This document shows, in pieces, positions 41,018-60,500 of a DNA stretch of 64,000 nucleotides. The notes beneath the pieces are model-generated. The model saw nothing but the letters and a program-made list of their open reading frames with translations, made no database searches and was not told the DNA's origin. Numbering within the stretch: the first letter of the stretch is position 1; every line of letters begins with the position of its first letter. The stretch lies in assembly GCA_964428655.1 (NCBI GenBank), contig CAYRYE010000001.1:376406-440405 (forward strand), given 5' to 3'. Made by a program: the position numbers and the translations under genes. Source of the DNA: an uncultured Gammaproteobacteria bacterium. Lineage in GTDB: Bacteria; Patescibacteriota; Microgenomatia; UBA12405; JAHJSD01.

Positions 41018-41028
41018 GAGAAAATTTG

Positions 41029-41760: not shown

Positions 41761-41797
41761 GGATTTTTAATTAAGGTAACATATAATTTACAAATTA

Positions 41798-42565
41798 TTA
41801 CTTTTTGATAGCCGAGGCGATTAGAAAATAACCCCGCTTTTTGTCAATAGAACAAAGTAGATCTGACAGCCATCCATATAAAGGCACGTAGCCACGAGTA
41901 AACATTTTTATGTCTCTAAATCCCACTAGTTCTAAACTATCTTGCAATCCTTGAAAGGAAAGTACTTTGATATGGCCAATGGAGCCAGTTAAACCTTTTC
42001 TTTGGCATTTTTTTATCAATTTCTCGATGTCTTTGGCATTTTTTCTTTGTTTCATCAATGGATTGCCAACAAGCCAACCACCAATATCGCATGAAAATGG
42101 CTGCCAGCCAAAAAATAGGGCAAAAAGATTAGCGAAAGAGGCTAAATTTTCTGTTAAAATTATCAGCTGGCCGTTGGGCTTTAGGCAACGATAACACTCC
42201 AGAAGATAAAAAGCGGTGTTATGAACATGTTCTATGTTTTGGCTTGATAAAATAATGTCAAAGTAATTACTCTCAAGCGGCCATTTATAGTTTAAGTCGG
42301 CTTTCAGACATTTTATTCCTTTACTTTTTGCGGCCCTAATTCTTTGAGGGAGTATTTCAATGCCCCAGATTTCTTTAGATTTGATAGTTTTAGCAAATTC
42401 CTTTGTTAATTTTCCATCTGAACAGCCGAGGTCTAAAAATCTATCAACGTTCTTTTTAGTGATTAATTTTTTTCCTAAGGAAATACAATCCTTAACTCCT
42501 TCGTCAAAAGAATTGCGTGGACACAGTTTTACTGCTTTTTTGGCAAAGTTTATAAAAATATTCAT
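41798..42565 (-). CDS. Class I SAM-dependent methyltransferase
   Basis: RFLDLGCSDGKLT…LKPNGQLIILTEN (motifs I and II/III). Confidence 0.6.
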   Translation of the reverse strand: MNIFINFAKKAVKLCPRNSFDEGVKDCISLGKKLITKKNVDRFLDLGCSDGKLTKEFAKTIKSKEIWGIEILPQRIRAAKSKGIKCLKADLNYKWPLESNYFDIILSSQNIEHVHNTAFYLLECYRCLKPNGQLIILTENLASFANLFALFFGWQPFSCDIGGWLVGNPLMKQRKNAKDIEKLIKKCQRKGLTGSIGHIKVLSFQGLQDSLELVGFRDIKMFTRGYVPLYGWLSDLLCSIDKKRGYFLIASAIKK

Positions 42566-42595
42566 CAGCTTAATGTATAATATTTATTCTACCCC

Positions 42596-43645: not shown

Positions 43646-44699
43646 AAAATATATTGCCGTTTTACCATATTGGCCGGTATTTGCACCCAAGAACGAGGAC
43701 TATTTTTTCTTGCCCTCGCTGGTGGCAAAGGTTGCCGGCTATAAATCTTCTCTTTTGATTTATTCACCTAAAAAAGAAGAGGAAGCTAAGAATTATCAAG
43801 GAATAGATCTATTTTTTTGTAAAACTTTTAGAAATTTATATAAAAGTATTTCGAAAGATTCTATTGTTCATATTCAAACAACTTACCGATCATCGCTTTT
43901 GCTTATTCTTCTCTTAACGTTAAAAAGGAAGAACTGCCGGATAATTTGGACACCTCATACTTCTTTTGGAAAAAGATATCCCCTTGGTTTTAATTTTGAC
44001 ATTTTTAAAATTGCCTTCCCTGTTTTTAAAAAAATAGATAAAATAATCGCCATTACTGAATTCGAAAGGCAATATTTGGAGAAATTGGGATACAGAAATA
44101 TTGTTTACACTCCGCTTGTAACAGATGTAAAGAATTTTTCAAGAAATAAAAGACGGGAAAAGACTAAGGAGTTTAACTTTTTATTTATTGGTGGAGGGAG
44201 AAAAGTCAAAGGATTGGCAACAGTTTTGAAAGCATTTTCAGTTTTTGGAAAGTTTGGGATAAACAGCAATCTTTTTATTCTCGGTAGAGTGAGTAACAGC
44301 TTTAAAAAAAAATATTGTGATTTAATAAACAACAAGGTAAAGTTTTTTGGTGTTATAAAGCCCTGCTCTAATCACCTGGTCGATTTATTTGGGAAATCAA
44401 ATTGCTACATTAATGCTTCGTTTCAGGAAGGCAGTCCTCTAGCAGCGTTAGAAGCGGCGGCCTCAGGCCTATTTCTATGTTTACCTGATTTGCGAACACT
44501 AAAAAGCATTTTTGGAGATAATGCCTTTTATTACAAAATTGGCAGCTGGTTGGAGTTAATTGAAACGATGTTTCTTTGTTTTTACAATGTGGAAATTTCT
44601 CGAAAGAAAATTGCTAGAAATGAAAAATTGATGCGAGAGTTTTCTTGCGAAAAATTCGAGATTAAATTTACTTGCCTTTTAAGATCTTTGAGTAGTTAG
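43638..44699 (+). CDS. GT4-family (GT-B) glycosyltransferase
   Basis: …NASFQEGSPLAALEAAASGLFLCLPD… nucleotide-sugar binding region. Confidence 0.55.
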   Translation: MIKKYIAVLPYWPVFAPKNEDYFFLPSLVAKVAGYKSSLLIYSPKKEEEAKNYQGIDLFFCKTFRNLYKSISKDSIVHIQTTYRSSLLLILLLTLKRKNCRIIWTPHTSFGKRYPLGFNFDIFKIAFPVFKKIDKIIAITEFERQYLEKLGYRNIVYTPLVTDVKNFSRNKRREKTKEFNFLFIGGGRKVKGLATVLKAFSVFGKFGINSNLFILGRVSNSFKKKYCDLINNKVKFFGVIKPCSNHLVDLFGKSNCYINASFQEGSPLAALEAAASGLFLCLPDLRTLKSIFGDNAFYYKIGSWLELIETMFLCFYNVEISRKKIARNEKLMREFSCEKFEIKFTCLLRSLSS

Positions 44700-45393
44700 G
44701 TTTTTGAAAAATTGCTTCGTAGTTAACGGTAACTTCTTTAGTGGGAAAAATTTTGTCTAAAAAAGTTGCGGTTAAATTCATAAAAATTATTAGTGGGGAA
44801 AAGAGAATAATATAAGACCAGTAGGCGAGAGATTCTTTTTTTGTAAATAGTTTTGTTGGCAGGGTGGTAGCTAAATAGGAAAGTGTTTGAAATACGCCAT
44901 TTTGAGGCTTTAGATGACGAACTATAAATCCACTTGATTTGCCTAGATATTTTATCCCATACTCGGTAAATCGGAAATAATCATTGGGGGCGCTATGAAT
45001 TTGATAAAGGAAATTGGTGGTAAGAAACAGCAGCCCGCCAGGTTTCAATATTCGATAAAACTCTCTAAAAACTTTTCGCGGCCTTTTTAAATGTTCCAAA
45101 ACTTGAATGCAGAAAATGTAATCAAATGTTTTATCCTTTACAAAAGGCAATCCCTTATTAAGATTACCAGTGATATCCAAGTTTTGTTCTTTATTTTGTT
45201 TCAAGTCATGAGAAAAATATTGAGCCTTGCTGAATAACCGCTTGTAGTTGCTGGCTTGTACGCCGATGTCTAAGATTTTTTTTCCCGAACGGTCACATTT
45301 TTTGGCAGCAGATATAACAAATCTATCCATTTGGTAGTAGAAATTCATAAAAAGAAATTTTATAAAAAGTATGATTTTATCTTTAGTTGTCAT
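44668..45393 (-). CDS. Class I SAM-dependent methyltransferase
   Basis: KILDIGVQAS…LKPGGLLFLTTNF. A 32-nt convergent overlap with 43638-44699. Confidence 0.55.
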   Translation of the reverse strand: MTTKDKIILFIKFLFMNFYYQMDRFVISAAKKCDRSGKKILDIGVQASNYKRLFSKAQYFSHDLKQNKEQNLDITGNLNKGLPFVKDKTFDYIFCIQVLEHLKRPRKVFREFYRILKPGGLLFLTTNFLYQIHSAPNDYFRFTEYGIKYLGKSSGFIVRHLKPQNGVFQTLSYLATTLPTKLFTKKESLAYWSYIILFSPLIIFMNLTATFLDKIFPTKEVTVNYEAIFQKPNYSKILKGK

Positions 45394-46364
45394 GTTTTTT
45401 TACTGAAGTATTTTAAGCCGGTAATAGTTCCCAACCAGCCGCCCAGCCAATTTATATTTTTAGTTTTTATTGCCTTATAAGTCCAATAGGAGTTGAGGAA
45501 TAAAACATAGAGAGAAAACTTAAATACATAACTGGGTTTCAGTTTGAAAATATGAGTAAAATAAAATCGAATAAAATTTTCCATTCTTTCTTTAGCATCA
45601 GTTCTTCTTGAATAAGCGCCGCCTTGAGAAATATGGTGTTTTACTTTTGCCTTAGAATTAAAAACAAGTTGATAGCCTAATTCTTTAACTCTCATGGCTA
45701 AATCTAATTCAGACCACTCAGCCACTTTTTTGTAGTTATAGTCAAACCCACCCACTTTATTTACTAGTTTTTTTCTTAAGGTCATATTGCAGGCTTCAAG
45801 GTAATCAACTTCTCTTAAGCCCTTGATCTTTAAACAACTGAGAAAGTTAGAGCCTGGTGACCAGGCGCCGCTTTTAAAGATTCTTCCCACTTCGTGTTTT
45901 TTTCCTTCAAGAAAGAACCAGTTCCAAAAATTGCCTAATAATTTCCAAATTCCTTTGGAGTAATAAAGAAAGAAAACATCTCTGTTTTTTAAGAGTTTTA
46001 ACGGAATAATGGTTGGGCCGCTGACACCGCCAATTTTTTTGTTTTTAAAAGTGTTAATAATTGCCTTGGCCCAGCTTTTACTAACAATTACGTCGTCATC
46101 AATCCAGGCGACTAGTTTTCCTTTAGCTTTTCGCCAACCTTGATCTCTTGCTCTGGCCAGCTCTTTTTTTCTATAGACAATTTTTTTAATTTTAAGTTTT
46201 TTGGAATATTTGGAGATTACGTGATTGGTCTTGTCAGTTGAACCGCCGTCAATTATTACTGCCTCGAAATTAGAAGAATTTTGTTTTGTTAAACTTTCCA
46301 AACAGTTTTTAAGATCACCGGCCCGATTAAAAGTGCAAATCACTATTGATAGTTTTGGCTTCAT
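45390..46364 (-). CDS. Family 2 glycosyltransferase
   Basis: LSIVICTFNRAGDLKNCLESL…AVIIDGGSTDKT…AWIDDDV. Confidence 0.65.
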   Translation of the reverse strand: MKPKLSIVICTFNRAGDLKNCLESLTKQNSSNFEAVIIDGGSTDKTNHVISKYSKKLKIKKIVYRKKELARARDQGWRKAKGKLVAWIDDDVIVSKSWAKAIINTFKNKKIGGVSGPTIIPLKLLKNRDVFFLYYSKGIWKLLGNFWNWFFLEGKKHEVGRIFKSGAWSPGSNFLSCLKIKGLREVDYLEACNMTLRKKLVNKVGGFDYNYKKVAEWSELDLAMRVKELGYQLVFNSKAKVKHHISQGGAYSRRTDAKERMENFIRFYFTHIFKLKPSYVFKFSLYVLFLNSYWTYKAIKTKNINWLGGWLGTITGLKYFSKKT

Positions 46365-46385
46365 GACTTTAGTATACTAAAAGCG

Positions 46386-47411
46386 ATGAGGGATTATCTA
46401 ATTAGAAAAGCCAAATTATTGTATTCTTCTTCTTTGGGAATTGGGCGATTGGTTAAAGCAATTTCCTCTTCAAAAATTTACTTAAGAATCCTAAAAACGA
46501 AAATAATTAACCAAATTCACAAAGATAAAAAAGGACCTTTTAATTTGTCAATTGAGACAACCAATTTTTGCAATGCTTGTTGTTCAATGTGTCCTTATCG
46601 GCTGATGAAACGACCCAAAAAAATAATGGACGAAGAAATATTTAGTAAAATAGTCCGGCGAATAAAGAAGGAGAAAATTTGCATTAATAAGATTCTTTTA
46701 AGCGGCTTGGGGGAGCCGTTGACTGATCCAAATTTTATCTCACGGATTAAAAAATTAAAAAATCTTGGCTTTCCCATTCGACTTTACACTAATGCTTCTT
46801 TATTAACAAAGAAAATTGCTAAAGAATTAGTCAAAATTAAACTTGATGAGATCAATATCAGTTTTAATGGGGTTACGCCAAAGCAATATAAAAAGATAAT
46901 GGGATTGGATTTTGATAAAACAATTAAAAATATCGATAATCTTCTTGAAATTAAAAAAGAACAGAAAAGCAAGTTGCCAGTAATTCAAATATCTTCAATT
47001 ATTACTCCAGAAAACGAAGTTGATATTAAAAAGCATATTAAAAAATGGTCTGGAAAAGTAAGTTCAGTCACTGTTTCTCAGCCTCATGAGTGGGGCGGGG
47101 GAGTGAAGATGGCCTTCGACCTCTGGCCAAAAACTTCAAACACAACTTATCCTTGTCGGTCTCTTTGGCACACTTTTGTTATTGATAGTCAAGGTAATTT
47201 TGTCATCTGCTGCCGTGATTATGAATCAAAATATATTTTAGGCAATATTAAAACTGACTCGTTTTCTGCAATCCAAAATAATCCTCTTGTAAAAAAGTTT
47301 CGTCGGCTTCATTTACAGTTTCAAAAAGGAAAATTGCCTCAGATGTGCCGGAAATGCAATTTCCCCTATCAAGATGGAATCGAGTGGTTTATGCCTCGGT
47401 CAATAGATTAA
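46386..47411 (+). CDS. Radical SAM enzyme with a C-terminal SPASM/twitch-like Cys-rich domain
   Basis: FCNACCSMC (CX3CX2C) near the N-terminus. C-terminal cysteines …YPCRSLWHTFVIDSQGNFVICCRDY…MCRKCNF…. Confidence 0.6.
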   Translation: MRDYLIRKAKLLYSSSLGIGRLVKAISSSKIYLRILKTKIINQIHKDKKGPFNLSIETTNFCNACCSMCPYRLMKRPKKIMDEEIFSKIVRRIKKEKICINKILLSGLGEPLTDPNFISRIKKLKNLGFPIRLYTNASLLTKKIAKELVKIKLDEINISFNGVTPKQYKKIMGLDFDKTIKNIDNLLEIKKEQKSKLPVIQISSIITPENEVDIKKHIKKWSGKVSSVTVSQPHEWGGGVKMAFDLWPKTSNTTYPCRSLWHTFVIDSQGNFVICCRDYESKYILGNIKTDSFSAIQNNPLVKKFRRLHLQFQKGKLPQMCRKCNFPYQDGIEWFMPRSID

Positions 47412-48401
47412 GTTTTTTAAAATATTTTTGAAGATATATTTAATTGTATTTAGAGAGTATATCCAGAAGATGGAAAAACAAATTATCGGATGTAAAAACC
47501 AAGCTGGATCGGGGATTTTCACAAAACCTTTTAACGCCTCAATTATTGGCCCGATCCAAGTTAAGGCATAAATGGAATAGACAATAATTTTAATTTTGTC
47601 TTTTTGGGGATTGTAAATAAGATAGCGTCTTTGCAGTAGATCATGAAGATATAAATTGTTCATGTATTTTTGCCTTTTTTTTAAATATTTGAAGAAATTT
47701 TCTCCGCTGGCATGGATAATGTCATTTTTTACCACCACATATTTATTGTAACCTTTCTTTATCAAATCATAATTAACATCAATATGAAAAAAATGTTTTT
47801 TGTCAACATTAGCCCTCATAAGCAGATTTTTTTTAATTAGAAAGCCATTGGCTCCCACAGTGGAAAGATTCTCTTTGTCAAATTCAACCAAAAAGTATTC
47901 GCCTTTATCTGTTGCTTTTCCAGACAGAGTCCATTTTAAAGACAAATAAGACTGCCTATCAGCTTTGTTCAAAAAATAGGCAATTGGGTCATTAACACCG
48001 AAAAGAGAAAAATAACGATTTAGAATTTTATCCCTTTTCTGATAGGTGTATCGCCAGGGATAACAGCCAACTATATTAGTTTCTTTGTCAAGAAGGGAAA
48101 CCATTTTGGCCAGCCATTTTTTATTTGGCAGAATATTATCATCATCTATTTGAAGAATGAGTTCGTTTTTTGCCTGCCTTAGAGCAACCGCCTTGGCCGC
48201 CTCAGGACTACCGGTATTTTCAGGAATGATTTTAGTTTGATATTGTTTGGCAATTTCAATAGTTTTATCGGTTGAACCGCCATCAGCAATAATAATTTCA
48301 ATTTTATCTTGGTTATATTCTTGCTCTCGAACACTTTTAAGACACTTTTTCAAAGTTTTCTCACTATTAAGGGTGGCCATAATTACACTAATGCTTTTCA
48401 T
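47400..48401 (-). CDS. Family 2 glycosyltransferase
   Basis: ISVIMATLNSEKTLKKCLKSV…IIIADGGSTDKT…QIDDDN. Confidence 0.65.
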   Translation of the reverse strand: MKSISVIMATLNSEKTLKKCLKSVREQEYNQDKIEIIIADGGSTDKTIEIAKQYQTKIIPENTGSPEAAKAVALRQAKNELILQIDDDNILPNKKWLAKMVSLLDKETNIVGCYPWRYTYQKRDKILNRYFSLFGVNDPIAYFLNKADRQSYLSLKWTLSGKATDKGEYFLVEFDKENLSTVGANGFLIKKNLLMRANVDKKHFFHIDVNYDLIKKGYNKYVVVKNDIIHASGENFFKYLKKRQKYMNNLYLHDLLQRRYLIYNPQKDKIKIIVYSIYALTWIGPIIEALKGFVKIPDPAWFLHPIICFSIFWIYSLNTIKYIFKNILKNLIY

Positions 48402-48420
48402 AGTTGTATTATAGTCAATT

Positions 48421-49080
48421 TTAATTCTCTCGAAAAAGATGAACTTCCCAAAAATTTGCCAACCCTTTTAAAAATCTAGGTACTTTTTCAAAATAGCAGT
48501 AAAGCCAGCCAGCGTGCAGGCCTATAACCACAGGAATGATTTTATACTGCTTGAACAAACTTTTTTTAAGAAGAATAATCAAATCTTCTTCTGTGTATTC
48601 TCTTACATGTCCGGATTTAAAATGGGGAAACTTTCTTTTTTTGCTAAAAAATTCAATTACCCTGCGTGTTAACCTTTTTCTATTCGGAGTGGTTATTAGG
48701 GCAGCCGCTCCAGGCCTTAAGACCTGATACAGTTCATCTAGGGCCTTTAAATCATCAGGAACGTGTTCTATGACATGACTGCTCACAGCTATGTCAATAC
48801 TCTTTGGTTTAATAAAATTGGTTAGATTTTGCCAGTCACCGGTAATGTATCTGACATTCTTAAAATTAGAGGGCGTTTTTTGGGGAAGCAGTTCAACGCC
48901 AATCAATTGATGACAGTGCTGGCTGAGTTGTTTTGTTTTTTCCAAGTTTGAGGCTCCAATTTCTAAAACAATAGAAGATTTCTTGACATACTTTTTGTAA
49001 GATTGGCATATTGAAATCCAATCATAAGTAATGTTTAACGAGGGAAAGCCTATTTTCATGAGCCTGCCAAAGTATAACAA
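48421..49080 (-). CDS. Class I SAM-dependent methyltransferase
   Basis: VLEIGASNLEKT…LRPGAAALITTPN. Confidence 0.55.
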   Translation of the reverse strand: MLYFGRLMKIGFPSLNITYDWISICQSYKKYVKKSSIVLEIGASNLEKTKQLSQHCHQLIGVELLPQKTPSNFKNVRYITGDWQNLTNFIKPKSIDIAVSSHVIEHVPDDLKALDELYQVLRPGAAALITTPNRKRLTRRVIEFFSKKRKFPHFKSGHVREYTEEDLIILLKKSLFKQYKIIPVVIGLHAGWLYCYFEKVPRFLKGLANFWEVHLFREN

Positions 49081-49126
49081 ATAAACAGTCCGGAGCTGTT
49101 TGCCCTGGTATACTAATTAAAGAAAT

Positions 49127-50584
49127 ATGAAAATTGTTATTGCTTATCCCCCACTTGAATCAAAAAAAGGGATTCCATTTTTAGCCCAGAATCGGCAGTT
49201 TCAATGGGGGCATAGCCCATGGACTGCTTATCCAATGGTGCCGGCCTATGCGGCGGCAATGTTAAAACAAGCTGGACATCAGGTTTTTTGGTTGGACGGA
49301 ATTACCGAGGGGTGGTCTTATCAAAAATGGCTGAATGAAGTCAAAAAAATAGAACCGGATTTAATTGTTATAGAAACCAAGACCCCAGTAGTCAAACAAC
49401 ACTGGAAGATTATTAATCATCTTAAGTCACTGTCGACCGTTCTCGTTGGCGACCACGTCACCGCTTTACCTGGAGAATCATTCGAAAACTCTAAAGTTGA
49501 TTATGTTTTAACTGGCGGCGATTATGATTTTTTACTTCTTAATTTGGTTGAGCATTTAGCCAAAGGTGAGAAACTTGAACCTGGAATTTGGTATAGGGGA
49601 AAAATACGAGATACGAAATACGAGATACGAGATACCGGCCCTTTCAAGCTAAATCATGATTTAGATACTCTTCCCCTTATTGATCGTGATTTAACCAAAT
49701 GGAAGCTCTACGCTTATAAAAACAGCAATTATTGTCGAACGCCGGGAACATACACTATGTTTGGCCGAGATTGTTGGTGGGGGAAGTGTTTTTTTTGCTC
49801 CTGGACTACCTTATATCCAGGAGAAAATTATCGAACAATAAGCCCCAAGCGAGCCTTGGATGAGGTAGGTCATATTTTAGAGAATTATCCGATTAAGGAA
49901 ATCATGGATGATTCCGGCACTTTTCCTACTGGAGATTGGTTGAAAGAGTTTTGCCGAGGAATGATTAAAAGAGGTTATAATAAAAGAGTAAGAATTAGCT
50001 GTAATATGCGTTTTAATGCAGGTTTAAATAAAAAGGATTATCAATTAATGGGTAAAGCAGGATTTAGATTTCTTCTTTATGGATTAGAGTCAACTAATCA
50101 GAAAACTTTGGATAAAATTAATAAAAACATGAAAATAGAAGAAGTGGAAAAAGTTTTGGGTTGGGCCAAAGGAGCCAAACTTAATCCTCATTTAACCGTT
50201 ATGATTGGTTATCCTTGGGAAACAAAGAGAGAGATTAAGAAAACCTTAGATTTCACTAGAGATCTTTTCAAAAAAGGCCTAGCAGACACTCTCCAAGCAA
50301 CAATTGTTATTCCCTATCCGGGAACACCGCTTTTCGCTGAAGCAAAAAGAAAAGGTTGGTTGAAAACTTTAAATTGGGATCAATATGACATGCGGGAGCC
50401 GATTTTAAAAACAGAAATGAGAGGTGGGGAGATAAAAGCATTAATTCAAGATTTTTACAAATCTGTTTTCACGCCCCAATTTATTTTAAGAAAAGCAAGA
50501 GAAGCCTTTTCTAACTGGGATGTTTTTAGATATTATCTTAGATTGGGTTTGAAATTTCCCAACAAGCTCTTAGATTTTGTATAA
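49127..50584 (+). CDS. B12-binding-domain radical SAM protein (class-B-like)
   Basis: N-terminal Rossmann-like B12-binding-type region (MKIVIAYPP…), a Cys cluster CWWGKCFFC (CX4CX2C variant), and a TIM-barrel-like remainder. Contains the ATACGAG heptamer repeat at 49624-49656. Confidence 0.55.
   Translation: MKIVIAYPPLESKKGIPFLAQNRQFQWGHSPWTAYPMVPAYAAAMLKQAGHQVFWLDGITEGWSYQKWLNEVKKIEPDLIVIETKTPVVKQHWKIINHLKSLSTVLVGDHVTALPGESFENSKVDYVLTGGDYDFLLLNLVEHLAKGEKLEPGIWYRGKIRDTKYEIRDTGPFKLNHDLDTLPLIDRDLTKWKLYAYKNSNYCRTPGTYTMFGRDCWWGKCFFCSWTTLYPGENYRTISPKRALDEVGHILENYPIKEIMDDSGTFPTGDWLKEFCRGMIKRGYNKRVRISCNMRFNAGLNKKDYQLMGKAGFRFLLYGLESTNQKTLDKINKNMKIEEVEKVLGWAKGAKLNPHLTVMIGYPWETKREIKKTLDFTRDLFKKGLADTLQATIVIPYPGTPLFAEAKRKGWLKTLNWDQYDMREPILKTEMRGGEIKALIQDFYKSVFTPQFILRKAREAFSNWDVFRYYLRLGLKFPNKLLDFV
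49624..49656 (+). repeat. Heptanucleotide tandem repeat (ATACGAG, about 4.7 units) inside the B12-radical-SAM gene
   Basis: atacgag atacgaa atacgag atacgag atacc. Encodes …KIRDTKYEIRDTG…. Confidence 0.8.
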
Positions 50585-50602: not shown

Positions 50603-51157
50603 ATGACCAAAAAAAAGAAAAATAAAAGTAGGCCGTTTATTTTGTTTATTACTGGAATCAGTGGTTCGGGAAAAACAACTGTTTTTGAGAAATTTTCGAA
50701 AGATTTAAGTTTAAAGGCTTCTTCGATTGAATTTCGAGAAATTGATGAAAAAAAAGTTCCCCCTGTGGGAAGAAGCCATTGGCGTCAATATCGAGTTGAG
50801 GAGCTTCTTTATCAGGCAATTAAAAACTTAAAGAAAGGAAAATCTACTGTTATTTGTGGTATTACTTTGCCTCAAGAAATTATTAATTCAAGATTGTATA
50901 AACCTTCTTTTAATATTCATTTTCTCTTACTCGACATTCCTATTTCCCTTTTTTCTAAAAGAGTGAAAGAGAGAATTAAAAAAACTAAAGAAGAGAAAAA
51001 TTGGGAAGAGTTAAAATATTCCACAAAAAAACTTTCTACTAGATTAAAAAATCAAGTGGTTAGTTATAAAAATGGTTTAGTGTTGGATGTAGGCAAAAAA
51101 AATGTTGATGAGATTTTCAAAGATGTTTTTTCTTTGATGAGAAAGTTACAGAAATAA
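50603..51157 (+). CDS. Small P-loop NTPase / nucleotide-kinase-like protein
   Basis: Walker A FITGISGSGKTT with a kinase-like size (184 aa). Confidence 0.5.
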   Translation: MTKKKKNKSRPFILFITGISGSGKTTVFEKFSKDLSLKASSIEFREIDEKKVPPVGRSHWRQYRVEELLYQAIKNLKKGKSTVICGITLPQEIINSRLYKPSFNIHFLLLDIPISLFSKRVKERIKKTKEEKNWEELKYSTKKLSTRLKNQVVSYKNGLVLDVGKKNVDEIFKDVFSLMRKLQK

Positions 51158-51176: not shown

Positions 51177-51947
51177 ATGAAACAAAATTACCGAGATTTG
51201 CTTTTCAACCTGGTTAAGCGCGAGATTGCTGGGAGGTATAAACAATCAATTCTGGGCTACTTCTGGGTGGTTTTAAACCCCTTTTTCCAGATGCTGGTAA
51301 TGACATTAGTCTTTTCAAAAATCATGCGAATTTCGATTCCTGGTGTGCCTTATTTTCTGTTTTTATATGTGGGTCTCTTGCCTTGGACTTTTTTTGTTAA
51401 TTCTGTTAATTCGGCAATGGGAAATCTGGTCGGCATGGGTTCTTTAATAAAAAAGGTTTATTTTCCCAGGGAGATTATTGTTTTGGCAGCTGTTTTAGCA
51501 AAAGTGGTAGATCTTATTTTGGCCTCTCTGATTTTTGTCTTGTTTATGATTATTTTTCGCCAATCAACTAATTTGGCTTTAGATTTAGCAGTTGTTCCTA
51601 TGATTTTTCTTATCCAGTTTATTTTTTCTTTCGGCATTGGCCTTTTTGTTTCTGCTTTAAACCTTTTTTATCGCGATGTTCAGTATTTGATGAGTTTAAT
51701 TTTAATGCTTTGGTTTTATTTAACGCCAGTGGTTTATCCAATTGAAATGGTCCCCGAGAAACTGCGGATTGTCTTTTCACTTAATCCTATGTCGGTTTTA
51801 ACCAATGCTTATCGACGGGTAATTCTAGGCGGTTCTTTGCCAAATTTAGCCCATTTGACAGTCGCCTTGTTAGTTTCGTTAATTATCTTGGTAATTGGCT
51901 GGAGAGTATTTAAAAAACTAGAAGGCCGCTTTGCAGATGTTGTCTAA
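51177..51947 (+). CDS. ABC-2 type transporter permease (Wzm/TagG-like polysaccharide exporter)
   Basis: 256 aa with 6 TM helices. The N-terminal …LVKREIAGRYKQSILGYFWVVLNP… ABC-2 signature precedes the Wzt-like ATPase. Confidence 0.7.
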   Translation: MKQNYRDLLFNLVKREIAGRYKQSILGYFWVVLNPFFQMLVMTLVFSKIMRISIPGVPYFLFLYVGLLPWTFFVNSVNSAMGNLVGMGSLIKKVYFPREIIVLAAVLAKVVDLILASLIFVLFMIIFRQSTNLALDLAVVPMIFLIQFIFSFGIGLFVSALNLFYRDVQYLMSLILMLWFYLTPVVYPIEMVPEKLRIVFSLNPMSVLTNAYRRVILGGSLPNLAHLTVALLVSLIILVIGWRVFKKLEGRFADVV

Positions 51948-53391
51948 AAAAATGAAAAATAACATTGCCATTAAATTTGATTCTGTTTCTAAACTCTATT
52001 ATCTCCAGTCCCATCGGACTTTAAAAGAGTTTCTGCCGGCATTTTTAAAAAAGAAAGCACCAAAGACTCTCCGACGAGTGGCCCGTCAGTTTTATGCCCT
52101 AAAAAACATTTCTTTTAAAATTAAAAAGGGCGAGACAGTCGGCATCATTGGTCCTAACGGAGCCGGCAAGTCAACTATTCTCAAATTGATCGCCGGCGTC
52201 ACCAAGCCAACCAGAGGAAAAATAACTGTCAACGGCCAGGTTTCACCTTTAATCGAATTAGGAGCCGGTTTTCATCCTGATTTAACCGGTCGGGAAAACA
52301 TTTATCTTAACGGTTCCATTTTGGGTCTGACTAAAAAGAAAATTGACAAAAAATTCAAAGAAATCGTTGATTTTGCCGAACTCTGGGACTTTATTGACCA
52401 ACCAGTCAAACACTATTCTTCAGGTATGTATGCTCGTTTAGGCTTTTCAATTGCCATTAGTGTTGAGCCGGAAATTCTTTTAATTGATGAAATTTTAGCT
52501 GTTGGCGATGCTGCTTTTCAAGAAAAATGTTTTGCCAAGATGGAGGAATTTAAAAAGAGTGGAGTGACGATTATTTATGTTTCCCATTCCCTTCCCAGTG
52601 TGGCCAAATTTTGTAATCATTGTCTCTATTTAGATAAATCCAAGTTGATTTCTGAAGGTAATCCCCAAGAAATAATAGAAAATTATTTAAGAACTGAAAA
52701 AAAAGTCAGCAGTCAACAGTATCACCAAACCCCAGAAAAAAGTTCAATTGAGGCGATTGATCCAAGCTGGTACAAAAATTTTGTTGGCGGCATGTGGGAG
52801 GAAATAGGTAAGTTACAGTTTGATTTTTTAATTAAACAAGGCTTAAAACCTGAAAATAAGTTATTAGATCTTGGTTGCGGCAGCTTGAGAGGGGGAATTC
52901 ATTTTATTAAATATCTTAAAAAAGGAAATTATTTTGGGATTGACGTTAGAAAAGATATTTTAATTGCCGCTGAAAAAGAAATTAAAATTAATAAACTATC
53001 AAACAAGAATCCTCAATTATTTCAAATAACTGATAATAAATATGATGATCATTTAAAAGAAAAATTTGATTTTATTTTGGCTGTTTCCGTTTTTACCCAT
53101 TTAAATTTAAATGAAGTTGCTATTTGTTTATATGAAGCAAAAAAAATTCTTAAAAAGAAAGGCAATTTTTTTGCCACTTATTTTGAATCAGAAAAATGTG
53201 TTTTTGATACTAATGGTTTTCTTCAAGTAGAGAAGCCGGATAAGGTTATTACCCTTTTTCACAAGGATCCTTACCATTATTGCTTTTCTCTAATAAAAGA
53301 AGTGGCTAAATTAATTGGATTAAAGGCAAAAGTTATCAAGAATTGGAAACATCCTCGAAATCAAAAAATGTTAGTTTTTAGACATCAGTAA
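51931..53391 (+). CDS. ABC transporter ATP-binding protein (Wzt/TagH-like) fused to a C-terminal class I SAM-methyltransferase-like domain
   Basis: Walker A GPNGAGKST, signature YSSGMYARLG, Walker B LLIDEIL, H-loop YVSHS. Then a ~230-aa extension with LLDLGCGSLRGG (MTase motif I), YFGIDV, and FDFILAVSVFTH. Confidence 0.7.
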   Translation: MQMLSKKMKNNIAIKFDSVSKLYYLQSHRTLKEFLPAFLKKKAPKTLRRVARQFYALKNISFKIKKGETVGIIGPNGAGKSTILKLIAGVTKPTRGKITVNGQVSPLIELGAGFHPDLTGRENIYLNGSILGLTKKKIDKKFKEIVDFAELWDFIDQPVKHYSSGMYARLGFSIAISVEPEILLIDEILAVGDAAFQEKCFAKMEEFKKSGVTIIYVSHSLPSVAKFCNHCLYLDKSKLISEGNPQEIIENYLRTEKKVSSQQYHQTPEKSSIEAIDPSWYKNFVGGMWEEIGKLQFDFLIKQGLKPENKLLDLGCGSLRGGIHFIKYLKKGNYFGIDVRKDILIAAEKEIKINKLSNKNPQLFQITDNKYDDHLKEKFDFILAVSVFTHLNLNEVAICLYEAKKILKKKGNFFATYFESEKCVFDTNGFLQVEKPDKVITLFHKDPYHYCFSLIKEVAKLIGLKAKVIKNWKHPRNQKMLVFRHQ

Positions 53392-53393: not shown

Positions 53394-56300
53394 ATGGCTA
53401 AGGGTAAAAGAAAGACCATTTGTATTTTAGGAATGCATCGGGCAGGCACTTCCCTTTTAACTAGAATTTTAAATATTTCTGGAATGGCGATTGGAGAAAA
53501 AGAGGAAATAATTGGTGTCAGGAAGGGTAATCCCACCGGTCATTGGGAAAATAAAGCCTTTGTTGAGATTAATAATCAGATTATTTCAATATTTAAGAAA
53601 AATGCTGATTGGCATGAAATTCCTGATTATCCCACTAATTGGTTAAAAAATCCCAAGGTAGTATCACTGGAAAGAAAAGCAAAAGAGCTAGTGAAAAAAA
53701 TGAATGCAAGATATAAAATTTGGGGGTGGAAAGACCCCCGAACTTGTGTTACTTTGCCTTTTTGGCAAAAGATAATTGGGGACGAATTGGTCTATGTGGT
53801 TATTTTTAGGAATCCTCTTGATGTCGCCAAATCATTAAAAAAAGTTCACAATCTTCCCCATGATAAAAGCATTTTGCTTTGGGCAAGATATTATCTTACT
53901 GTTTTAGATAGTCTTAGAGGCAAGAAGTTTTCTTTTATTCATTCTGAAAAATTATTATCAAATTGGGAAAAAGAAATTAAAAAAATATTGAAACATATAA
54001 ATTCTTCTTATCTCAAAATTAATGATCAGAAAAGAGAAGAGGTTAACAATTTTATCAGGCCTAGCATTTGGCATTTTAGTACCAAGACTAAAAATAGTTT
54101 TTTTGGCTTGGCAGATAATTTGCGATTGGCCTTGCTTGATTACTTATATCTTTCTACTAATAAAGTTAAAACAATTTTAAAAAAGGATCTTACTAATTTG
54201 GGCCATCAGTTAGCCAATAAAACCAACCAGGCAAATGCCCTTGTTGGAGAATTAACGAAAAAAGATGAACAATTGATAGTTAAAGATAACCAATTAAGTG
54301 ACTTTTCTAAACAATTAAGAGATACTACTGAGGAGTTGGAAGTGACTAAAAATGAACTTGTCGAGGCTGAGGAAAAGTTAGGAAAAACAGGTAAAGAAAT
54401 ATATGACGCTATAATTAAGCAGGAACAAAAAATAAAACAGCTTCGGTTAAAAGCAAGAGAGATCAATAAATCTCTTAAAAAGAAAAAGATGGTTATCAAA
54501 GAAAAAAACAAAAAAGTGGCTGATCTAAGTCTCCACTCTCAAAATCTGGGGAAAATTCTTGCCAATATTGTTTCGGCAAAAACTTTTAAGGCCTGGCAAA
54601 CATACGTGAAGATTAGACGAAAACCGACGCTTTTGATTGAAGCTGGGAAAACTTTATTAAAAAAAGGTCCAGGAGGTTTAAAGCAAAGGTTGACAAATGT
54701 TCAACAAAAGGAAGAAAGAATAGCCGCTCTTAATCAACAATATCATGTTTGGTTGAGAAAAAATACTCCCACAAAAAAGGAATTAAGAGGTCAAAAAAGA
54801 AAACAAAAAAAATTTGAATATAGGCCCAAAATCAGCATTATTACTCCAGTTTACAACACTGATAAAAAGTGGCTGCGAGCCTGTATTGAATCGGTCTTAG
54901 TTCAAACATACGACAATTGGGAGTTATGCATAGCTGACGACGCCTCAACAAAGCCCTATATTAAAAAAATCTTGAAAGAATATGAAAAGAAAGACAAGAG
55001 AATAAATGTTGTTTATCGTCGAAGAAATGGCCATATTTCTCGAGCCTCAAATTCAGCTCTGAGACAAGCAGTGGGAAAGTTTATCGCCCTTTTAGATCAT
55101 GATGATAAGCTAGTGCCTCATGCCCTGTATAGAGTGGTTGAATTTTTGAATAAAAAAAGAAAGGCTGATTTTGTTTACTCTGATGAGGACAAATTAGATT
55201 TAAATGGCAACCGGGTTAAACCATTTTTTAAGCCAGACTGGTCACCTGATATGTTTTTATCAGCCAATTATTTGTGTCATTTAAGTGTAATTAGAAAAAA
55301 ATTAGTTGATAAAGTTGGTGGTTTTAAACCAGGCTATGAGGGTTCTCAGGATTATGATTTGTTTTTAAGAATTACTGAAAAGACAGACAAGATTTATCAC
55401 ATCCCTGATGTTCTTTATTCTTGGAGAGAGGCGTCTGGATCTACGGCGGCAGTTTATGAAGTCAAGGGTTATGCTGATGCGGCCGCAGCTAAAGCCTTAA
55501 AAAGTAGTATTAAAAGAAAAAAATTAAAAGCAGAAGTGGAACAAGGTTTGATTCCCGGAACATTTAGAGTTAAATACAAGATTAAAAAGAAACCTTTGGT
55601 TAGTATTATTATTCCTACCAAAGACATTGTTAATTATCTTAAAAGGTGTGTTGAATCTATTTTGAAAAAAACAGATTATGATAATTATGAAATTATTATT
55701 GTTGATACTGGAAGCAAAGAAAAGAAAACCTTTAGGTATTATGAGAAATTAAAAAAAAATCCAAGGATTAAGTTTTTGCAATGGGATAAACCTTTTAATT
55801 TTGCTTCAGTTAATAATTTTGCTGTTAAGAATACCCAAGGGAAATATGTTCTTCTTCTTAATAATGATATAGAAGTCGTCTCTTATGATTGGATAAAGTC
55901 AATGCTTGAGCATGCCCAGAGAGCTGAGGTGGGAGCGGTAGGGGCGAAATTATTATACCCTGATGGAAAAATTCAACATGCCGGGATAATTTTAGGGATT
56001 CGTGGCGGACCAATTAAGAAGGGGATAGCTGGTCATGCCCAAAAGATGTTTATAGATGAACCTTCGGGATTACCCCTATGGAACTCAAAAGATATGATAA
56101 GGAATTTTTCAGCAGTAACAGCCGCCTGTCTTATGATTGAAAGAAGTAAATATTTAGAAGTCAAAGGGATGAATGAAAAACTAGAAATTGCCTTTAATGA
56201 TGTTGATTTTTGCCTTAAACTGCAAAAAAAGGGGTATCTCAATGTTTATACCCCTTATGGCGGACTTTATCATTACGAGTCAGTTTCTGTTGGTCGTCCA

Positions 56301-56441
56301 AGTCAAGGGACAAGAGATATTGCCGAATTCCAAAAAGAGATTAACATAATGCACCGAAAATGGGGGCACCTTTTACAAAATGATCCTTACTATAATTCAA
56401 ACCTGACTTTAGACAGGGAAGATTTCAGTTTGGGAGTATGA
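53394..56441 (+). CDS. Multidomain glycan assembly protein: N-terminal sulfotransferase-like domain, ~200-aa coiled coil, then two tandem GT2 domains
   Basis: 5'-PSB-like ICILGMHRAGTS and 3'-PB-like VIFRNPLDVAKS. Heptad-rich K/E/Q segment about aa 270-470. GT2 domain 1 has ISIITPVYNTDKKWL…CIADDAST…LDHDD. GT2 domain 2 has VSIIIPTKDIVNYL…IIIVDTGS…LNNDIEV. Confidence 0.7.
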   Translation: MAKGKRKTICILGMHRAGTSLLTRILNISGMAIGEKEEIIGVRKGNPTGHWENKAFVEINNQIISIFKKNADWHEIPDYPTNWLKNPKVVSLERKAKELVKKMNARYKIWGWKDPRTCVTLPFWQKIIGDELVYVVIFRNPLDVAKSLKKVHNLPHDKSILLWARYYLTVLDSLRGKKFSFIHSEKLLSNWEKEIKKILKHINSSYLKINDQKREEVNNFIRPSIWHFSTKTKNSFFGLADNLRLALLDYLYLSTNKVKTILKKDLTNLGHQLANKTNQANALVGELTKKDEQLIVKDNQLSDFSKQLRDTTEELEVTKNELVEAEEKLGKTGKEIYDAIIKQEQKIKQLRLKAREINKSLKKKKMVIKEKNKKVADLSLHSQNLGKILANIVSAKTFKAWQTYVKIRRKPTLLIEAGKTLLKKGPGGLKQRLTNVQQKEERIAALNQQYHVWLRKNTPTKKELRGQKRKQKKFEYRPKISIITPVYNTDKKWLRACIESVLVQTYDNWELCIADDASTKPYIKKILKEYEKKDKRINVVYRRRNGHISRASNSALRQAVGKFIALLDHDDKLVPHALYRVVEFLNKKRKADFVYSDEDKLDLNGNRVKPFFKPDWSPDMFLSANYLCHLSVIRKKLVDKVGGFKPGYEGSQDYDLFLRITEKTDKIYHIPDVLYSWREASGSTAAVYEVKGYADAAAAKALKSSIKRKKLKAEVEQGLIPGTFRVKYKIKKKPLVSIIIPTKDIVNYLKRCVESILKKTDYDNYEIIIVDTGSKEKKTFRYYEKLKKNPRIKFLQWDKPFNFASVNNFAVKNTQGKYVLLLNNDIEVVSYDWIKSMLEHAQRAEVGAVGAKLLYPDGKIQHAGIILGIRGGPIKKGIAGHAQKMFIDEPSGLPLWNSKDMIRNFSAVTAACLMIERSKYLEVKGMNEKLEIAFNDVDFCLKLQKKGYLNVYTPYGGLYHYESVSVGRPSQGTRDIAEFQKEINIMHRKWGHLLQNDPYYNSNLTLDREDFSLGV

Positions 56442-57496
56442 AAAAACTACAAGAATGTTTTAAAAAACTCAAAAATATAAGATTTTATAAATTTATCCTA
56501 TTGCTTTGTTTGTTTATCTTTTGGCTTGGTTTTTTTATTTGGCATTTTGGTGATATAAAAATTACCCAATGGGGGGACATCCCGTTAACTACTAGTAACT
56601 TTTTGGAATCATACTATTGGACTAAAAAGATAATTTTTTGGGATAAAACTTTGGAGCTGATCGAAGAGAAGGTCAATGAAGAAAATTTGAAAAAATTGTT
56701 GCTTGAAGCCTATGTTGAGGCAATTCCAGTTAATCAGTGGTGGTCACCTCTAAGAGGAGATAAGGTGAAAGCTTTAAGGGATTTATTTGATTTTTATCGG
56801 GAAAATGAGGACTGTTTAGTTTTGGAAAAAGCCGCCTTTGAGTTTATTAAAATAAATTCTGACCATCCCGATGGTTATTTCAATTTAGGACTTGCTCTAG
56901 AAAAACAAGGTAAACTTAACCAAGCAGCGGAAAATTACAGAAGGACGCTTTCTTTAGAAAAAACTCATCTGGCGGCAATTAAACAGCTCTCTTCCATTCT
57001 TATTGAGAAGGATAGGTATTATGAAGCAAAGGAGGTTATTTCAGCTTATGAAACCAGAGTAGATTTAGTTGATCGGACTTTTTGCTTCTATTCAGATGAT
57101 GATAATTTCGCCGAGGGAGGAAAAAGTTGCGGCAGTAGATTTTTAGATGGTAAATATGTAATACGGATTGATAATAAAAATGTGAACATTAAAATGATAA
57201 GAATTGACCCCCCTCAAGGAAAGTTGTTTTTGCAAAAAATAGAGTTTGTTTCTCCTGGCGGCAAAGTGGAAAAAACAATAGATAGTTTTAGGGGATGGAT
57301 TATGTCAAAAGACTTAAAAAAAGTGGATGATCATAATTTCTATAGTATAGGTAGTGACCCTTATCTCTACATTAAATTATCGACTCATCTCGATTTTTCC
57401 CAATTCGACCAAGTTTTAATTGAGGCATCAATTGATCCGGATACTGACCCAGAAATAGATGTTTTATTGAAAGAGATAGAAGATAAAATTTCCTAG
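56438..57496 (+). CDS. N-terminally membrane-anchored TPR-repeat protein, unknown function
   Basis: TM helix FYKFILLLCLFIFWLGFFIW. TPR-like …HPDGYFNLGLALEKQGKLNQAAENYRRTLSLEK…. Confidence 0.5.
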   Translation: MKKLQECFKKLKNIRFYKFILLLCLFIFWLGFFIWHFGDIKITQWGDIPLTTSNFLESYYWTKKIIFWDKTLELIEEKVNEENLKKLLLEAYVEAIPVNQWWSPLRGDKVKALRDLFDFYRENEDCLVLEKAAFEFIKINSDHPDGYFNLGLALEKQGKLNQAAENYRRTLSLEKTHLAAIKQLSSILIEKDRYYEAKEVISAYETRVDLVDRTFCFYSDDDNFAEGGKSCGSRFLDGKYVIRIDNKNVNIKMIRIDPPQGKLFLQKIEFVSPGGKVEKTIDSFRGWIMSKDLKKVDDHNFYSIGSDPYLYIKLSTHLDFSQFDQVLIEASIDPDTDPEIDVLLKEIEDKIS

Positions 57497-57501: not shown

Positions 57502-60500
57502 ATGAAAAATATTGAAACAAAGAAAAAAATAATTCAGATTTTTTTAGGTTCCTGGATCGCTATTTCAATTATTTTTATGGCCTTGTCCTTATATGCCTTT
57601 GGCCAAAGTGTGGCAGAATATAGACATTTTGCCACTTTCAATGACTGGAAATCATTTCAAACAGCTAATGCTAAAAATTTTTTCAAGAATAACTTTTATT
57701 ATTTTAAGGGCAGGTTAAAAAAAGTTTTTATTAGTAATAATTCTATTCGGGAAAGATTGAAAGAGAATGGTTTCGATTATATTAATTTAGAAACCCTTCC
57801 AGCAGACTTACACTCCCTGGATTCTGACTTACCAGCTAGTGGTAGAAGCTATATCGAGGGGGAAATTAATTTAGAAAAAGGAAAAAAGGAACCGGTTCTG
57901 CTTAAGTATCGCGGTGACAATTTTTATCATTGGGGCTTTCCTAAAAAATCTTTCAAAATAAAATTTGATGACGATAGGATTATTAATCTTATTAACCCAA
58001 AAGAAATTGATTTTATTGCTGATAAAATTGCCTTTAATTTAGCTGAGGAAATGGGTCTTTATTTTTCTGGAGTAAAGTTTACTGGTTTATTCATAAACAA
58101 TGACTTTAAAGGGATATTTCTTGAGACAGAGGAGCCAAATACTGAGTATATCCGAAATCACTCACTTCCTTTTAGGGCCGTTTTTCAAGGAGAGAGCATT
58201 GGTCCGGACAGACAGGGTCTAGGTTTATTTCAAGACTCGAATAAATGGGATCTTGATGGTGGCTATTTGTCTAAGAAAAGCCTAGAGCCCTTTCTAAGGG
58301 CTCTGAATGAGGGAAATTTCAAAGGAATTTATCAAAATATTAACTTTGACTACTGGGTTAATTTCTATACTTTTGTCTCACTTATTCAAAATAGCCATTT
58401 TGATGATGCTCACAACTGGTTTTGGGGCGTTCATGGAGATCGTTTTTACCCTATTGTTTGGGATCCTGTCGGTTGGGTTATGAGAACTGGCTCTGGTGAA
58501 GGGGTAGAGGAAATGAAATCCATGATTTCTCAAACTTTTCGGAAAAATGTCTATTTCTCTAGTAGTTTTTCTCATCAACTCTGGCAACGAGTTAATGACT
58601 CCGGATTATTGGAAAGAATGTTTCAGGAAATGGATGAAATCAGTCTTTCTTTAGAAAATGTTTTGGACTACGATTTTTATAAAGGGGGCATATTTGGTAA
58701 TTCCAAGGGGGCTAGGTCACCTCAGACTACGGAAGAGATCCTAGAGGAAATTGCTGGCTTAAGGTCAAAAATTCAAGACAGGTTTGATTTTCTTAAGAAT
58801 GCTCTGTCTAAGGCTTCTGCTAGTTATTATATTGATGATAGGGATAATTGGTTGTATCTCCAGTACTCTGGTATTGCTCCCGCCGAAATAAAACAGATTT
58901 ATAGGGGGGTTCCCTTTGTCAATTATTCAACAGTTGAAGTTTTTAATAATTTGCAATATTTCCCCCTCCCCTTAGATTTAAACCAAATTGTTTCCGGTCG
59001 AGTTTCTGCTGGCGGCCCCTTTCCTTATGCAAAAGTTTGTCCAATGAGTTACCGAGTTAAGGTTAATTCTCGTCTCGGAGGTTTAATTGAGCCAAAATTA
59101 GTTAATTCTTTGAGCAAGGAAGAAATTGATCTTAAAGAGGTTAATGAATTTTCTCCTACTGACTGCATGATGGATTTTACCAGTCCAGGTGAGACTAAAT
59201 TTGGAAAACAAACAATTAATAATCAAAAAAGGGAAAATAATAGTCTTGAAATAACATTTTCTACCATTAATCCGGCTGATTATTTTGATTTTGACAGAAA
59301 TGATGAGGATGAAACTAAAATGACTTTGGGGGCTGAAAAATATGATAAAGTTTTCTTTAAAAAGGAAGAATTTAGTAAAAATATAGAACTAGAATTTAAA
59401 AAGCAGGAATATTTAGGAAGAGAGAATTGGTATTTGTCGCCTATTGATTTTAATAGCGGTTTTCTTTTCTATAGCCAGAGTTTGGCCCGGTCTCTGGGTT
59501 TTCCAATAAAGAAGCAGGAATTACTAAGTGTTTTTGGTAACGAATTCTATATTGGTGAATACTTCTTAAAAGAAGCAGCTGAGAATAAGGCCTTTTTTGA
59601 GGTTAATGGCTTAACTTTTGACACCGATATTTACAAGCTTGAAGGGGAAGATAGTCTCAAGAGGAAAAATTGGCAGAAGATTTCCACTGACCCGCGAAAA
59701 GAAGTTGATGATGATGAAACTTTAAAGGGTCTTTTAGACTCTTTAAATGATCCAAATGCCCTATTTAAAATTATTGATTGGCAAAATTTTGCTAATTTTT
59801 ATTCTTATCTAATTTTAGCCAGAGATGAGTTTCCTCAATATTTGCTTTATTTTGATAATACCCTAGGGAGGTTTAAGTTTATTCCTGATAAGGAAAAGTT
59901 TTATAGAGCAAATCAGGGATTTGATATTTATGACCCTTTGGTTCAGGAAATTTTAAAAAAAGACTTTGTTTGGGAAATTTTAGCCGAAAAAATTGGGAGG
60001 GATATTGATGGCATTTTATCTAAGATAATCCAGCAATATCAAGGGACAGGGAAACAATATCAAGAGAAAATCGAAAACAGTTTTGTTTATTGGAGTGATT
60101 CAGATGAAGGGCAAGGGCGAGAGTATTTTACTAATCAAGAGAAAATATTAAGAAATAATTTCTCAATCCTTAATGGGAAGGCGCAAGAATTAGTTGAAAG
60201 AAAAGATGAATCACTGATCCAGGAAATGATAGAAAGTTCTCAAAAAGAATTCTGGCAAAAAGATTCAATCTTTACCCTAGGGGATGAAGATAAAGTTATT
60301 TTGATCAAGGAGGGAAACCATTCTATTAAAAAGGATGTTATTATTCCTCCTGGACTAACTGTTGTTATTGAGCCGGGGGCAGTATTAGAAATGGGTTCAA
60401 AAGCCTCTATTGTTTCTCTTTCCCCAATAATAGCTGAGGGAACAGAGGATAAGCCAATAAAAGTGATTCCCTTAAAGGAAAAAAAGCCCTGGGGAGTAAT

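Follow-up and report, generated by a model that had tools for sequence, protein, structure and literature searches.

A Wzt-type exporter ATPase with a C-terminal methyltransferase domain, a candidate cap writer, in a patescibacterial glycan locus

Analysis of a 64,000-nucleotide stretch of DNA from an uncultured bacterium of the Patescibacteriota (NCBI GenBank assembly GCA_964428655.1, contig CAYRYE010000001.1, positions 376,406 to 440,405 of the forward strand; "the window" below means this whole stretch) revealed that the ATPase gene (wzt) of a putative Wzm/Wzt-type ATP-binding cassette (ABC) exporter encodes a C-terminal class I S-adenosylmethionine (SAM)-dependent methyltransferase (MTase) domain. 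In the textbook form of quality control in ABC-transporter-dependent glycan assembly, a carbohydrate-binding module (CBM) on Wzt reads a terminal cap that comes from a separate terminator enzyme. Our results support a fusion that is real, that is neither degenerate nor an artefact, and that is not unique, and they suggest that the final capping of the sugar chain may take place on the exporter itself. The best explanation, to which we give an even chance of being right as a whole, is that an active cap-writing MTase is tethered to the exporter and paired with a downstream polymerase composed of a sulfotransferase-like domain, a coiled-coil-like region and family 2 glycosyltransferase (GT2) modules.

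The identification of the exporter is supported by intact motifs in the nucleotide-binding domain (NBD) of Wzt, by the closest characterised relatives of this domain, and by an adjacent, co-oriented wzm gene in a glycan cluster, with GT2, GT4, MTase and flippase genes around the pair (Table 1). The wzm and wzt genes overlap by 17 nt on the same strand. The best matches of the NBD in the Protein Data Bank (PDB) were Aquifex aeolicus Wzt (6amx/7k2t; E 9e-68), TarH/TagH and mycobacterial RfbE, and its best NCBIfam matches were TagH and Wzt/RfbE models, under their equivalog cutoffs; Wzm resembled the Wzm/RfbD and KpsM NCBIfam models at scores under the cutoff and shared 83% and 76% identity with the Wzm proteins of two related loci, L090 and L091. 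The NBD motif residues (GPNGAGKST, SSGM, D186-E187 and H219) were invariant across the six fusion proteins considered below. These features mark the protein as a Wzt/TagH-type exporter ATPase, and the locus would encode an ABC exporter of the Wzm/Wzt type whose substrate is a lipid-linked glycan of the cell surface. The C-terminal jelly-roll CBM that defines cap-dependent Wzt proteins was absent from the window Wzt, in which Pfam gave no match to Wzt_C (PF14524). Many of the top-scoring NBD relatives (P0122-P0132 and P0241-P0290) were tandem double-NBD proteins of ~500-530 or ~770-920 aa, which is another uncommon Wzt-like architecture.

An earlier note on this DNA, made from the letters and their translation, had read the C-terminal extension as MTase-like from the motifs LLDLGCGSLRGG, YFGIDV and FDFILAVSVFTH, all of which were found in the translation. 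Four Pfam MTase models (Methyltransf_31/12/25/11) matched residues 306-421 at E values of 4e-12 to 2e-7, all over their gathering scores, which together with the missing PF14524 match disposes of a non-MTase assignment; the fold is the Rossmann-like alpha/beta fold of class I MTases. The SAM-binding residues that the note had asked about are intact both in the Gly-rich loop (D313-x-G315-C-G317) and at the acidic position after beta2 (D338), and D313-L-G315-C-G317 and D338 are invariant or nearly so in the family. The last 224 aa of the protein retrieved 293 homologues with E values down to 1.7e-94, which places the domain call far beyond chance; the best 120 of the 293 were all free-standing proteins of 195-300 aa with 36-65% identity, and those that were named were class I SAM-dependent methyltransferases.

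Conservation within the family argues for an enzyme that still works. In a 55-member alignment, the window MTase kept all 17 invariant columns (including D313, G315, C316, G317, R320, G322, Y334, G336, S386, F388 and H390) and matched 53 of 58 conserved columns, defined by a consensus of at least 85% among the other 54 members, while free-standing members matched 49-58 (median, 55); the MTase fold and the SAM-binding residues can therefore be regarded as intact. The earlier note had left a choice between a chain-modifying activity built into the exporter and a degenerate MTase fold that now serves to read the chain terminus. The first is favoured by these data, and the Wzt-borne domain is probably catalytically intact. 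The second, in which catalysis has been lost and the domain acts solely as a terminus reader, would fit a domain that sits at the CBM position of a protein that has no CBM, but we consider it very improbable: every residue that is invariant in the family is kept, the SAM-binding loop and D338 included, the score over conserved columns falls within the range of free-standing enzymes, and a free-standing homologue shares 65% identity with the domain.

The fusion itself appears to be genuine. The linker between the two domains aligns to the C-terminal tail of the Wzt and the N-terminal tail of the MTase encoded at locus L001, where the two are separate genes, and the reading frame is unbroken across window positions 52690-52800, with no stop codon. 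A run of eight A residues (~52696-52703) lies at the junction. It might thus be supposed that two genes were wrongly joined by an indel error in sequencing or assembly, for example at this homopolymer, the more so as the closest relative has two genes. However, deleting one A leaves no two-gene layout, since in the MTase frame at the junction no ATG, GTG or TTG precedes M288, which itself lies inside the conserved N-terminal helices; with no start codon able to serve a separate MTase, a frameshift at the A run was rejected, and the separate reading frame that the earlier note had named as grounds for refutation was not found. In addition, the same protein was recorded from both JGI/Logan (484 aa) and NCBI (486 aa), on contigs of ~548 kb, and unrelated assemblies contain equivalent fusions, one of which was found in two independent samples. 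This makes an artefact very unlikely, the least probable of the alternatives that we weighed. A full-length AlphaFold2 (AF2) model built from an alignment of the six fusions (mean predicted local distance difference test score [pLDDT], 72.9) consisted of two folded domains, with block-mean pLDDT values of 75-94 over most of the NBD core and values below 50 in linker residues 258-288.

The closest relative points to how the fusion may have arisen. The MTase most similar to that of the window (P0001; 65% identical) is encoded by a separate gene (226 aa) on a 24-kb metagenome contig (L001), where it follows wzm and wzt (232 aa) and precedes a gene for a large sulfotransferase/GT protein; the stop codon of wzt and the start codon of the MTase gene share the sequence ATGA. 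Both tails, that of Wzt and the N-terminal one of the MTase, can still be recognised in the window, where they are joined in frame. As part of the best explanation, the fusion probably derives from an ancestral pair of adjacent genes with the MTase gene immediately downstream from wzt. The L001 Wzt (235-933) lacks 14 residues right after the Walker A lysine (GSGK--------------KGK), which may reflect either a defective protein or an assembly error.

Fusions of this kind were also found elsewhere, a point that the earlier note had proposed to test. An exhaustive phmmer search over 1.84 billion representatives returned five full-length fusion homologues (P0242, P0296, P0298, P0351 and P0339), each with Pfam matches to ABC_tran and an MTase; at least four other 50%-identity clusters (P0242, P0296, P0298 and P0351; locus GC content, 47-67%) have an MTase of the same family as that of the window, and the MTase in P0339 is of another type. 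P0351 turned up in assemblies of two different samples. A wzm gene lies upstream from P0242, P0298 and P0339, that is, from every fusion whose upstream gene had a Pfam annotation, and the fusion loci for which DNA was retrieved had a GC content of 46-67%, versus 33% in the window. Other domains were seen at the same place: P0141 (L092, 1727-2959) combines an NBD 61% identical to that of the window Wzt with a C-terminal GNAT acetyltransferase domain and is followed by GT and epimerase genes and preceded by a 463-aa gene with Methyltransf_24 matches, and a Wzt of L149 (1124-2827) carries a C-terminal beta-propeller (Lactonase/YncE-like Pfam matches), not Wzt_C, directly upstream from a gene of the same MTase family as that of the window.

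Relationships among the fusions were judged from BLAST ranking and from a neighbour-joining tree that carries no support values. Their MTase domains lie scattered among those of unfused members, which indicates that fusion probably recurred: the window MTase groups with P0001, P0242 with unfused proteins that are 55-59% identical, and P0351 stands apart, and the sole fusion pair is P0296/P0298. The simplest reading is that three or four independent fusions took place, in addition to the P0339 event, always at the Wzt C terminus. A combined alignment of NBD and MTase sequences was set aside, as MAFFT placed the MTases onto the NBD (18-25% identity). A profile of the six-fusion alignment was also compared with a set of 5.8 billion proteins, of which the 8000 candidates sharing most words were scored; among ABC-MTase fusions it returned the window protein only and missed members of the query itself, and it is thus no gauge of rarity. 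Four high-GC loci (L026, L031, L052 and L080) have long open frames upstream on the MTase, and they were rejected as Wzt fusions because no NBD match lies immediately upstream on the same strand; in L026 and L052, NBD matches are found downstream on the opposite strand.

The MTase belongs to an uncharacterised family, marked by the pattern D-[VIL]-GCG-[SAC]-LRGG, with 482 confirmed pattern matches in GTDB species-representative genomes of many phyla. The window MTase has the family's N-terminal W..VGG.W..IG..QF helices, the GCGSLRGG and SVFTH motifs and the C-terminal W.HPR.QKM motif. A link to the Nod-factor enzymes NoeI/NoeE was considered and dropped, as tblastn with the MTase domain on plasmids gave just 26-33% identical "class I SAM-dependent methyltransferase" matches and the NoeE NCBIfam model matched the sulfotransferase domain of the downstream protein at 17.6 bits against a cutoff of 500 bits.

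The neighbourhood of the family was surveyed by tblastn with window proteins at 160 loci, the best 80 each from genomes and metagenomes, with flanks of 10 kb for the former and 4 kb for the latter, many of which are on short contigs. The MTase gene was directly downstream from wzt on the same strand in 11 of the 80 metagenome loci, and in at least 5 of these 11 (L114, L142, L147, L152 and L159) the Wzt carried the Wzt_C CBM (E 1e-22 to 1e-28). A sulfotransferase-domain homologue was present within 2 kb of the MTase at 41 of the 160 loci (15 genome and 26 metagenome loci), usually as the next gene after the MTase; in L086, a 312-aa sulfotransferase gene directly follows a fusion gene. The MTase-sulfotransferase pair occurs at L099, L114, L139, L142, L152, L159, L086, L001 and L002, among others, often in the order wzm, wzt (with or without Wzt_C), MTase and sulfotransferase. 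Since a CBM on Wzt is the hallmark of cap-dependent export, the position of the MTase directly after wzt, and in at least five loci after a CBM-bearing one, argues for a role as a cap writer, and the widespread MTase-sulfotransferase pair suggests an undescribed glycan terminus bearing both methyl and sulfate.

In the window, the sulfotransferase-like domain belongs to the 1015-aa protein encoded directly downstream. The statement of the earlier note that wzt lies directly upstream from a sulfotransferase-GT2 gene holds, with 2 nt between the wzt stop and the next start, and this gap makes it probable that the two are co-operonic. The N terminus of the 1015-aa protein matches Sulfotransfer_3 at an E value of 5.6e-4, under the cutoff; it is 79% identical to the corresponding domain of the L001 protein and 35% identical to that of a Desulfurobacterium gene (L002) with precomputed Pfam matches to Sulfotransfer_3 and Sulfotransfer_1. 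Its central region of ~200 aa looks coiled-coil-like by eye, from its composition. The protein is presumably a terminator-ruler-polymerase, in which the central region would act as the ruler. The polymerases of L090 (8893-11883) and L091 (3321-6236), whose dual-GT2 regions are 78% and 64% identical to that of the window, begin with an MTase instead of the sulfotransferase-like domain, and both loci have a short Wzt; the L001 polymerase, like that of the window, starts with a sulfotransferase-like domain. The N-terminal module of the polymerase thus looks like a swappable terminator cassette, and polymerases with an exchangeable terminator module have been described in WbbB and Klebsiella O7 ORF6 (PMC11231755).

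We propose that the 1015-aa enzyme would polymerise the chain and sulfate its nonreducing end at a length set by the coiled-coil-like region. The Wzt-borne MTase would then bind the sulfated terminus as its substrate and methylate it, giving a two-part cap. As the MTase is part of the transporter, capping would bring the finished chain to the exporter, and the acceptor pocket of the MTase might take over, at least partly, the recruiting role of the absent CBM. That the substrate is the glycan terminus, that sulfation precedes methylation and that the MTase contributes to export selectivity are all inferred; in our own judgement, methylation of a sugar hydroxyl is more plausible than methylation of the sulfate. 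More speculatively, such proteins could form a third class of glycan ABC exporter, in addition to CBM-bearing "cap readers" and CBM-less "coupled" transporters, in which the Wzt ATPase carries the cap writer (an MTase here and a GNAT elsewhere), the chain is completed chemically on the transporter, enzyme-substrate binding replaces the lectin-type checkpoint, and the cap is a novel combination of methyl and sulfate made by the MTase-sulfotransferase pair, which is widespread in bacterial phyla; we regard this wider proposal as tentative and more probably wrong than right.

Several observations weigh against the proposed cap-writing exporter. The MTase family was also found in Wzx/Wzy-type clusters, beside sugar-nucleotide genes (L003), and in loci without obvious glycan genes (L004), and at most of the scanned loci no wzt was detected inside the fetched flank (10 kb for genomes and 4 kb for metagenomes); the family therefore cannot consist solely of terminators for ABC-exported glycans. 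The Wzx/Wzy clusters and sugar-nucleotide genes would fit an MTase that targets something other than the terminus, be it internal polymer residues entering the channel, a lipid-linked primer or a nucleotide-sugar precursor, and three other MTases encoded in the window (48421-49080, 41029-41760 and 41798-42565) could then be the terminator. We consider a target of this kind unlikely, given the recurrent tight linkage of the family to wzt (CBM-bearing Wzt included) and to the sulfotransferase, the location of the sulfotransferase at the polymerase N terminus in the window and in L001, which is the terminator-module position of described systems, and a gene position matching that of the terminator MTase in operons of the "transport-elongation-termination" (TET) type (PMC7820976). 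Further points on the opposing side are that the sulfotransferase assignment combines a subthreshold Pfam match with homology to better-scoring relatives, that no close solved relative of the MTase family was found in the PDB, that the interdomain geometry of the AF2 model is not confident (predicted template modelling score, 0.48, from a six-sequence alignment) and that the tree from which fusions were counted carries no support values.

The main rival to a cap-writing exporter is a passive fusion of the "Rosetta-stone" kind, in which two translationally coupled genes were joined without any role in substrate selection: the MTase would be an active glycan enzyme, the fusion would provide only equal stoichiometry and membrane proximity, and Wzt would behave as a CBM-less one. 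Joining adjacent, translationally coupled genes takes no more than a small indel and can be near-neutral, and the closest relative, unfused and with a 4-nt overlap, is a single such indel away. A short CBM-less Wzt stands next to a separate MTase in L099, L125, L139 and L156, as well as in L001, which indicates that the system is apparently workable with neither a CBM nor a fusion and that the fusion may add nothing to recognition; the low-confidence linker, with no fixed interface predicted, fits this as well. On the other side, fusions of this type are likely to have arisen at least three or four times in lineages with GC contents of 33-67%, a different MTase type and a GNAT occupy the same Wzt C-terminal position, and a cap-binding CBM fills it in sister loci. 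This recurrence, together with the analogues at the same position, suggests some selective advantage rather than an accident, and we take a passive fusion to be a possible but not a probable account.

If the fusion is indeed a Wzt that carries a cap writer and that evolved repeatedly, it would represent a different way of coupling chain completion to export and would provide a simple genetic handle on how CBM-less transporters choose finished chains. The MTase-sulfotransferase pair beside wzm/wzt hints at termini that are both sulfated and methylated; the searchable literature gave us no description of such termini in this pathway. The locus would also provide a concrete surface-glycan system for bacteria of the Patescibacteria/candidate phyla radiation (CPR), whose envelopes are poorly known. 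Fusions of genes that are neighbours in a pathway are common, which tempers the significance of this one; nevertheless, the enzyme's position, the apparently repeated fusion and the sulfotransferase cassette linked to it make for a testable alternative to CBM-based export checkpoints.

Table 1. Features of the exporter locus and its neighbours, in window coordinates
Feature	Position	Strand	Details
P-loop kinase-like protein	50603..51157	+	184 aa; 19 nt upstream of wzm; membership in system uncertain
wzm, ABC-2 type permease subunit	51177..51947	+	256 aa; PF01061 ABC2_membrane E 4e-18
wzt, complete open reading frame	51931..53391	+	486 aa; TTG start, ATG at codon 3
wzt NBD	51931..52701	+	residues 1-257; PF00005 ABC_tran E 3e-24 over residues 57-188
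NBD motifs			Walker A G74-T82 (GPNGAGKST); signature S163-M166 (SSGM); Walker B/D-loop D186-E187...G192-D193; H-loop H219
NBD C-terminal helix			residues 245-265
Linker	52702..52794	+	residues 258-288; holds fusion junction
Class I SAM-dependent MTase domain	52795..53391	+	residues 289-486 and stop
MTase motifs	52867-52896 (motif I)		motif I D313-G322 (DLGCGSLRGG); acidic residue after beta2 D338; motif II region F379-H390
Sulfotransferase-like domain, Lys/Glu/Leu-rich region of ~200 aa and two GT2 modules (presumed polymerase)	53394..56441	+	1015 aa; Glycos_transf_2 x2 E 1.5e-51
TPR-containing protein	56438..57496	+	352 aa; conserved neighbour; TPR_1/TPR_2; 4-nt overlap with polymerase gene
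CotH kinase-like domain (E 3e-20) and C-terminal right-handed beta-helix (NosD/Beta_helix)	57502-61152		1216 aa; end of tight gene run

The plus-strand genes around the exporter are tightly packed, with spacings of 19 nt upstream of wzm and 2 nt after wzt and then -4, +5 and -11 nt, and this spacing suggests a single transcription unit from ~49.1 kb to 61.9 kb. A promoter scan of the window gave results at chance level, terminator-like sites were not clearly over chance, and an Rfam scan of the window gave no matches. The TPR protein has a 53% identical homologue in L090, and in the Desulfurobacterium locus (L002) a GT2-TPR gene follows the polymerase gene. The P-loop kinase-like protein had P-loop-level matches only (AAA_18 and APS, uridine and adenylate kinases), far under the cutoffs; it could be tied to the supply of 3'-phosphoadenosine-5'-phosphosulfate for the sulfotransferase, although this idea is unsupported. 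Between wzm and wzt, L090 (5816-6934) and L091 (2003-2374) have a small 23S_rRNA_IVP/bAvd-like gene, and L090 also has an NYN-domain gene; both are absent from the window. The exporter belongs to a large glycan island, which at 33641-50584 encodes a Wzx-like flippase (36275-37561), several GT2/GT4 proteins, the three further MTases located above, and radical-SAM enzymes with SPASM (46386-47411) and B12-binding (49127-50584) domains.

Full-text literature searches, with most subscription-journal papers outside their scope, found no description of an MTase-Wzt fusion; MTases were described there as separate terminators or as GT fusions. The sole named fusion homologue, P0339, is annotated as an "ATP-binding cassette domain-containing protein" or ABC-type polysaccharide transport ATPase. 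In all characterised terminated systems, the cap is read by a CBM on Wzt (PMC11231755, PMC9445017). Like the cap-dependent WzmWzt exporters of Escherichia coli O9a, Klebsiella O12/O4 and Aquifex aeolicus, the window exporter has a Wzm permease, a Wzt NBD and an extra domain after the last NBD helix, and it lies in a glycan cluster beside a candidate terminator-ruler-polymerase. Unlike in those systems, the extra domain is a class I MTase rather than a jelly-roll CBM, so that a "writer" would stand at the position of the "reader," and the exported product is probably not a lipopolysaccharide O antigen, since the host, judged by the names of the nearest NBD homologues, appears to be a Patescibacteria/CPR bacterium. 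CBM-less Wzt proteins (the Klebsiella O2a type and TagH/TarH) share the absence of the CBM, and the window NBD also matches TagH models; those proteins, however, end after the NBD or bear nonenzymatic extensions, whereas the window Wzt bears an enzyme beside an apparent terminator.

The cap logic resembles that of WbdD (E. coli O9a/O8 and Klebsiella O3) and Klebsiella O7 ORF6, in which an anionic group transferase works with a SAM-dependent MTase; the two-part cap proposed here has its analogue in the methyl-phosphate cap that a kinase and a methyltransferase write together in E. coli O9a and Klebsiella O3/O7. The idea of a coiled-coil ruler is also shared with WbdD, although in the window it would reside in the neighbouring gene. 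Unlike in WbdD, the partner is a sulfotransferase rather than a kinase, and the MTase, which lacks its own coiled coil, is joined to the transporter and not to the polymerase or terminator. WbdD was not among the matches of a profile search against PDB sequences at E<=1, and the window protein contains neither a kinase nor a coiled coil; the resemblance is probably functional only. Terminator MTases fused to a polymerase provide a further parallel, as in WsaE of Geobacillus stearothermophilus. Others are the GT-MTase fusions of Pseudomonas syringae (PMC7820976) and Klebsiella O7 ORF6 (PMC11231755). The window locus is like these in that a putative cap-writing MTase appears to have been shuffled onto another pathway component, and L090 and L091 have the MTase-GT2-GT2 layout itself; unlike in these, the partner of the window MTase is the exporter ATPase. 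The order wzm, wzt, MTase and GT seen at loci of the MTase family is that of the P. syringae TET operon, whose MTase has been interpreted as a WbdD-like terminator (PMC7820976).

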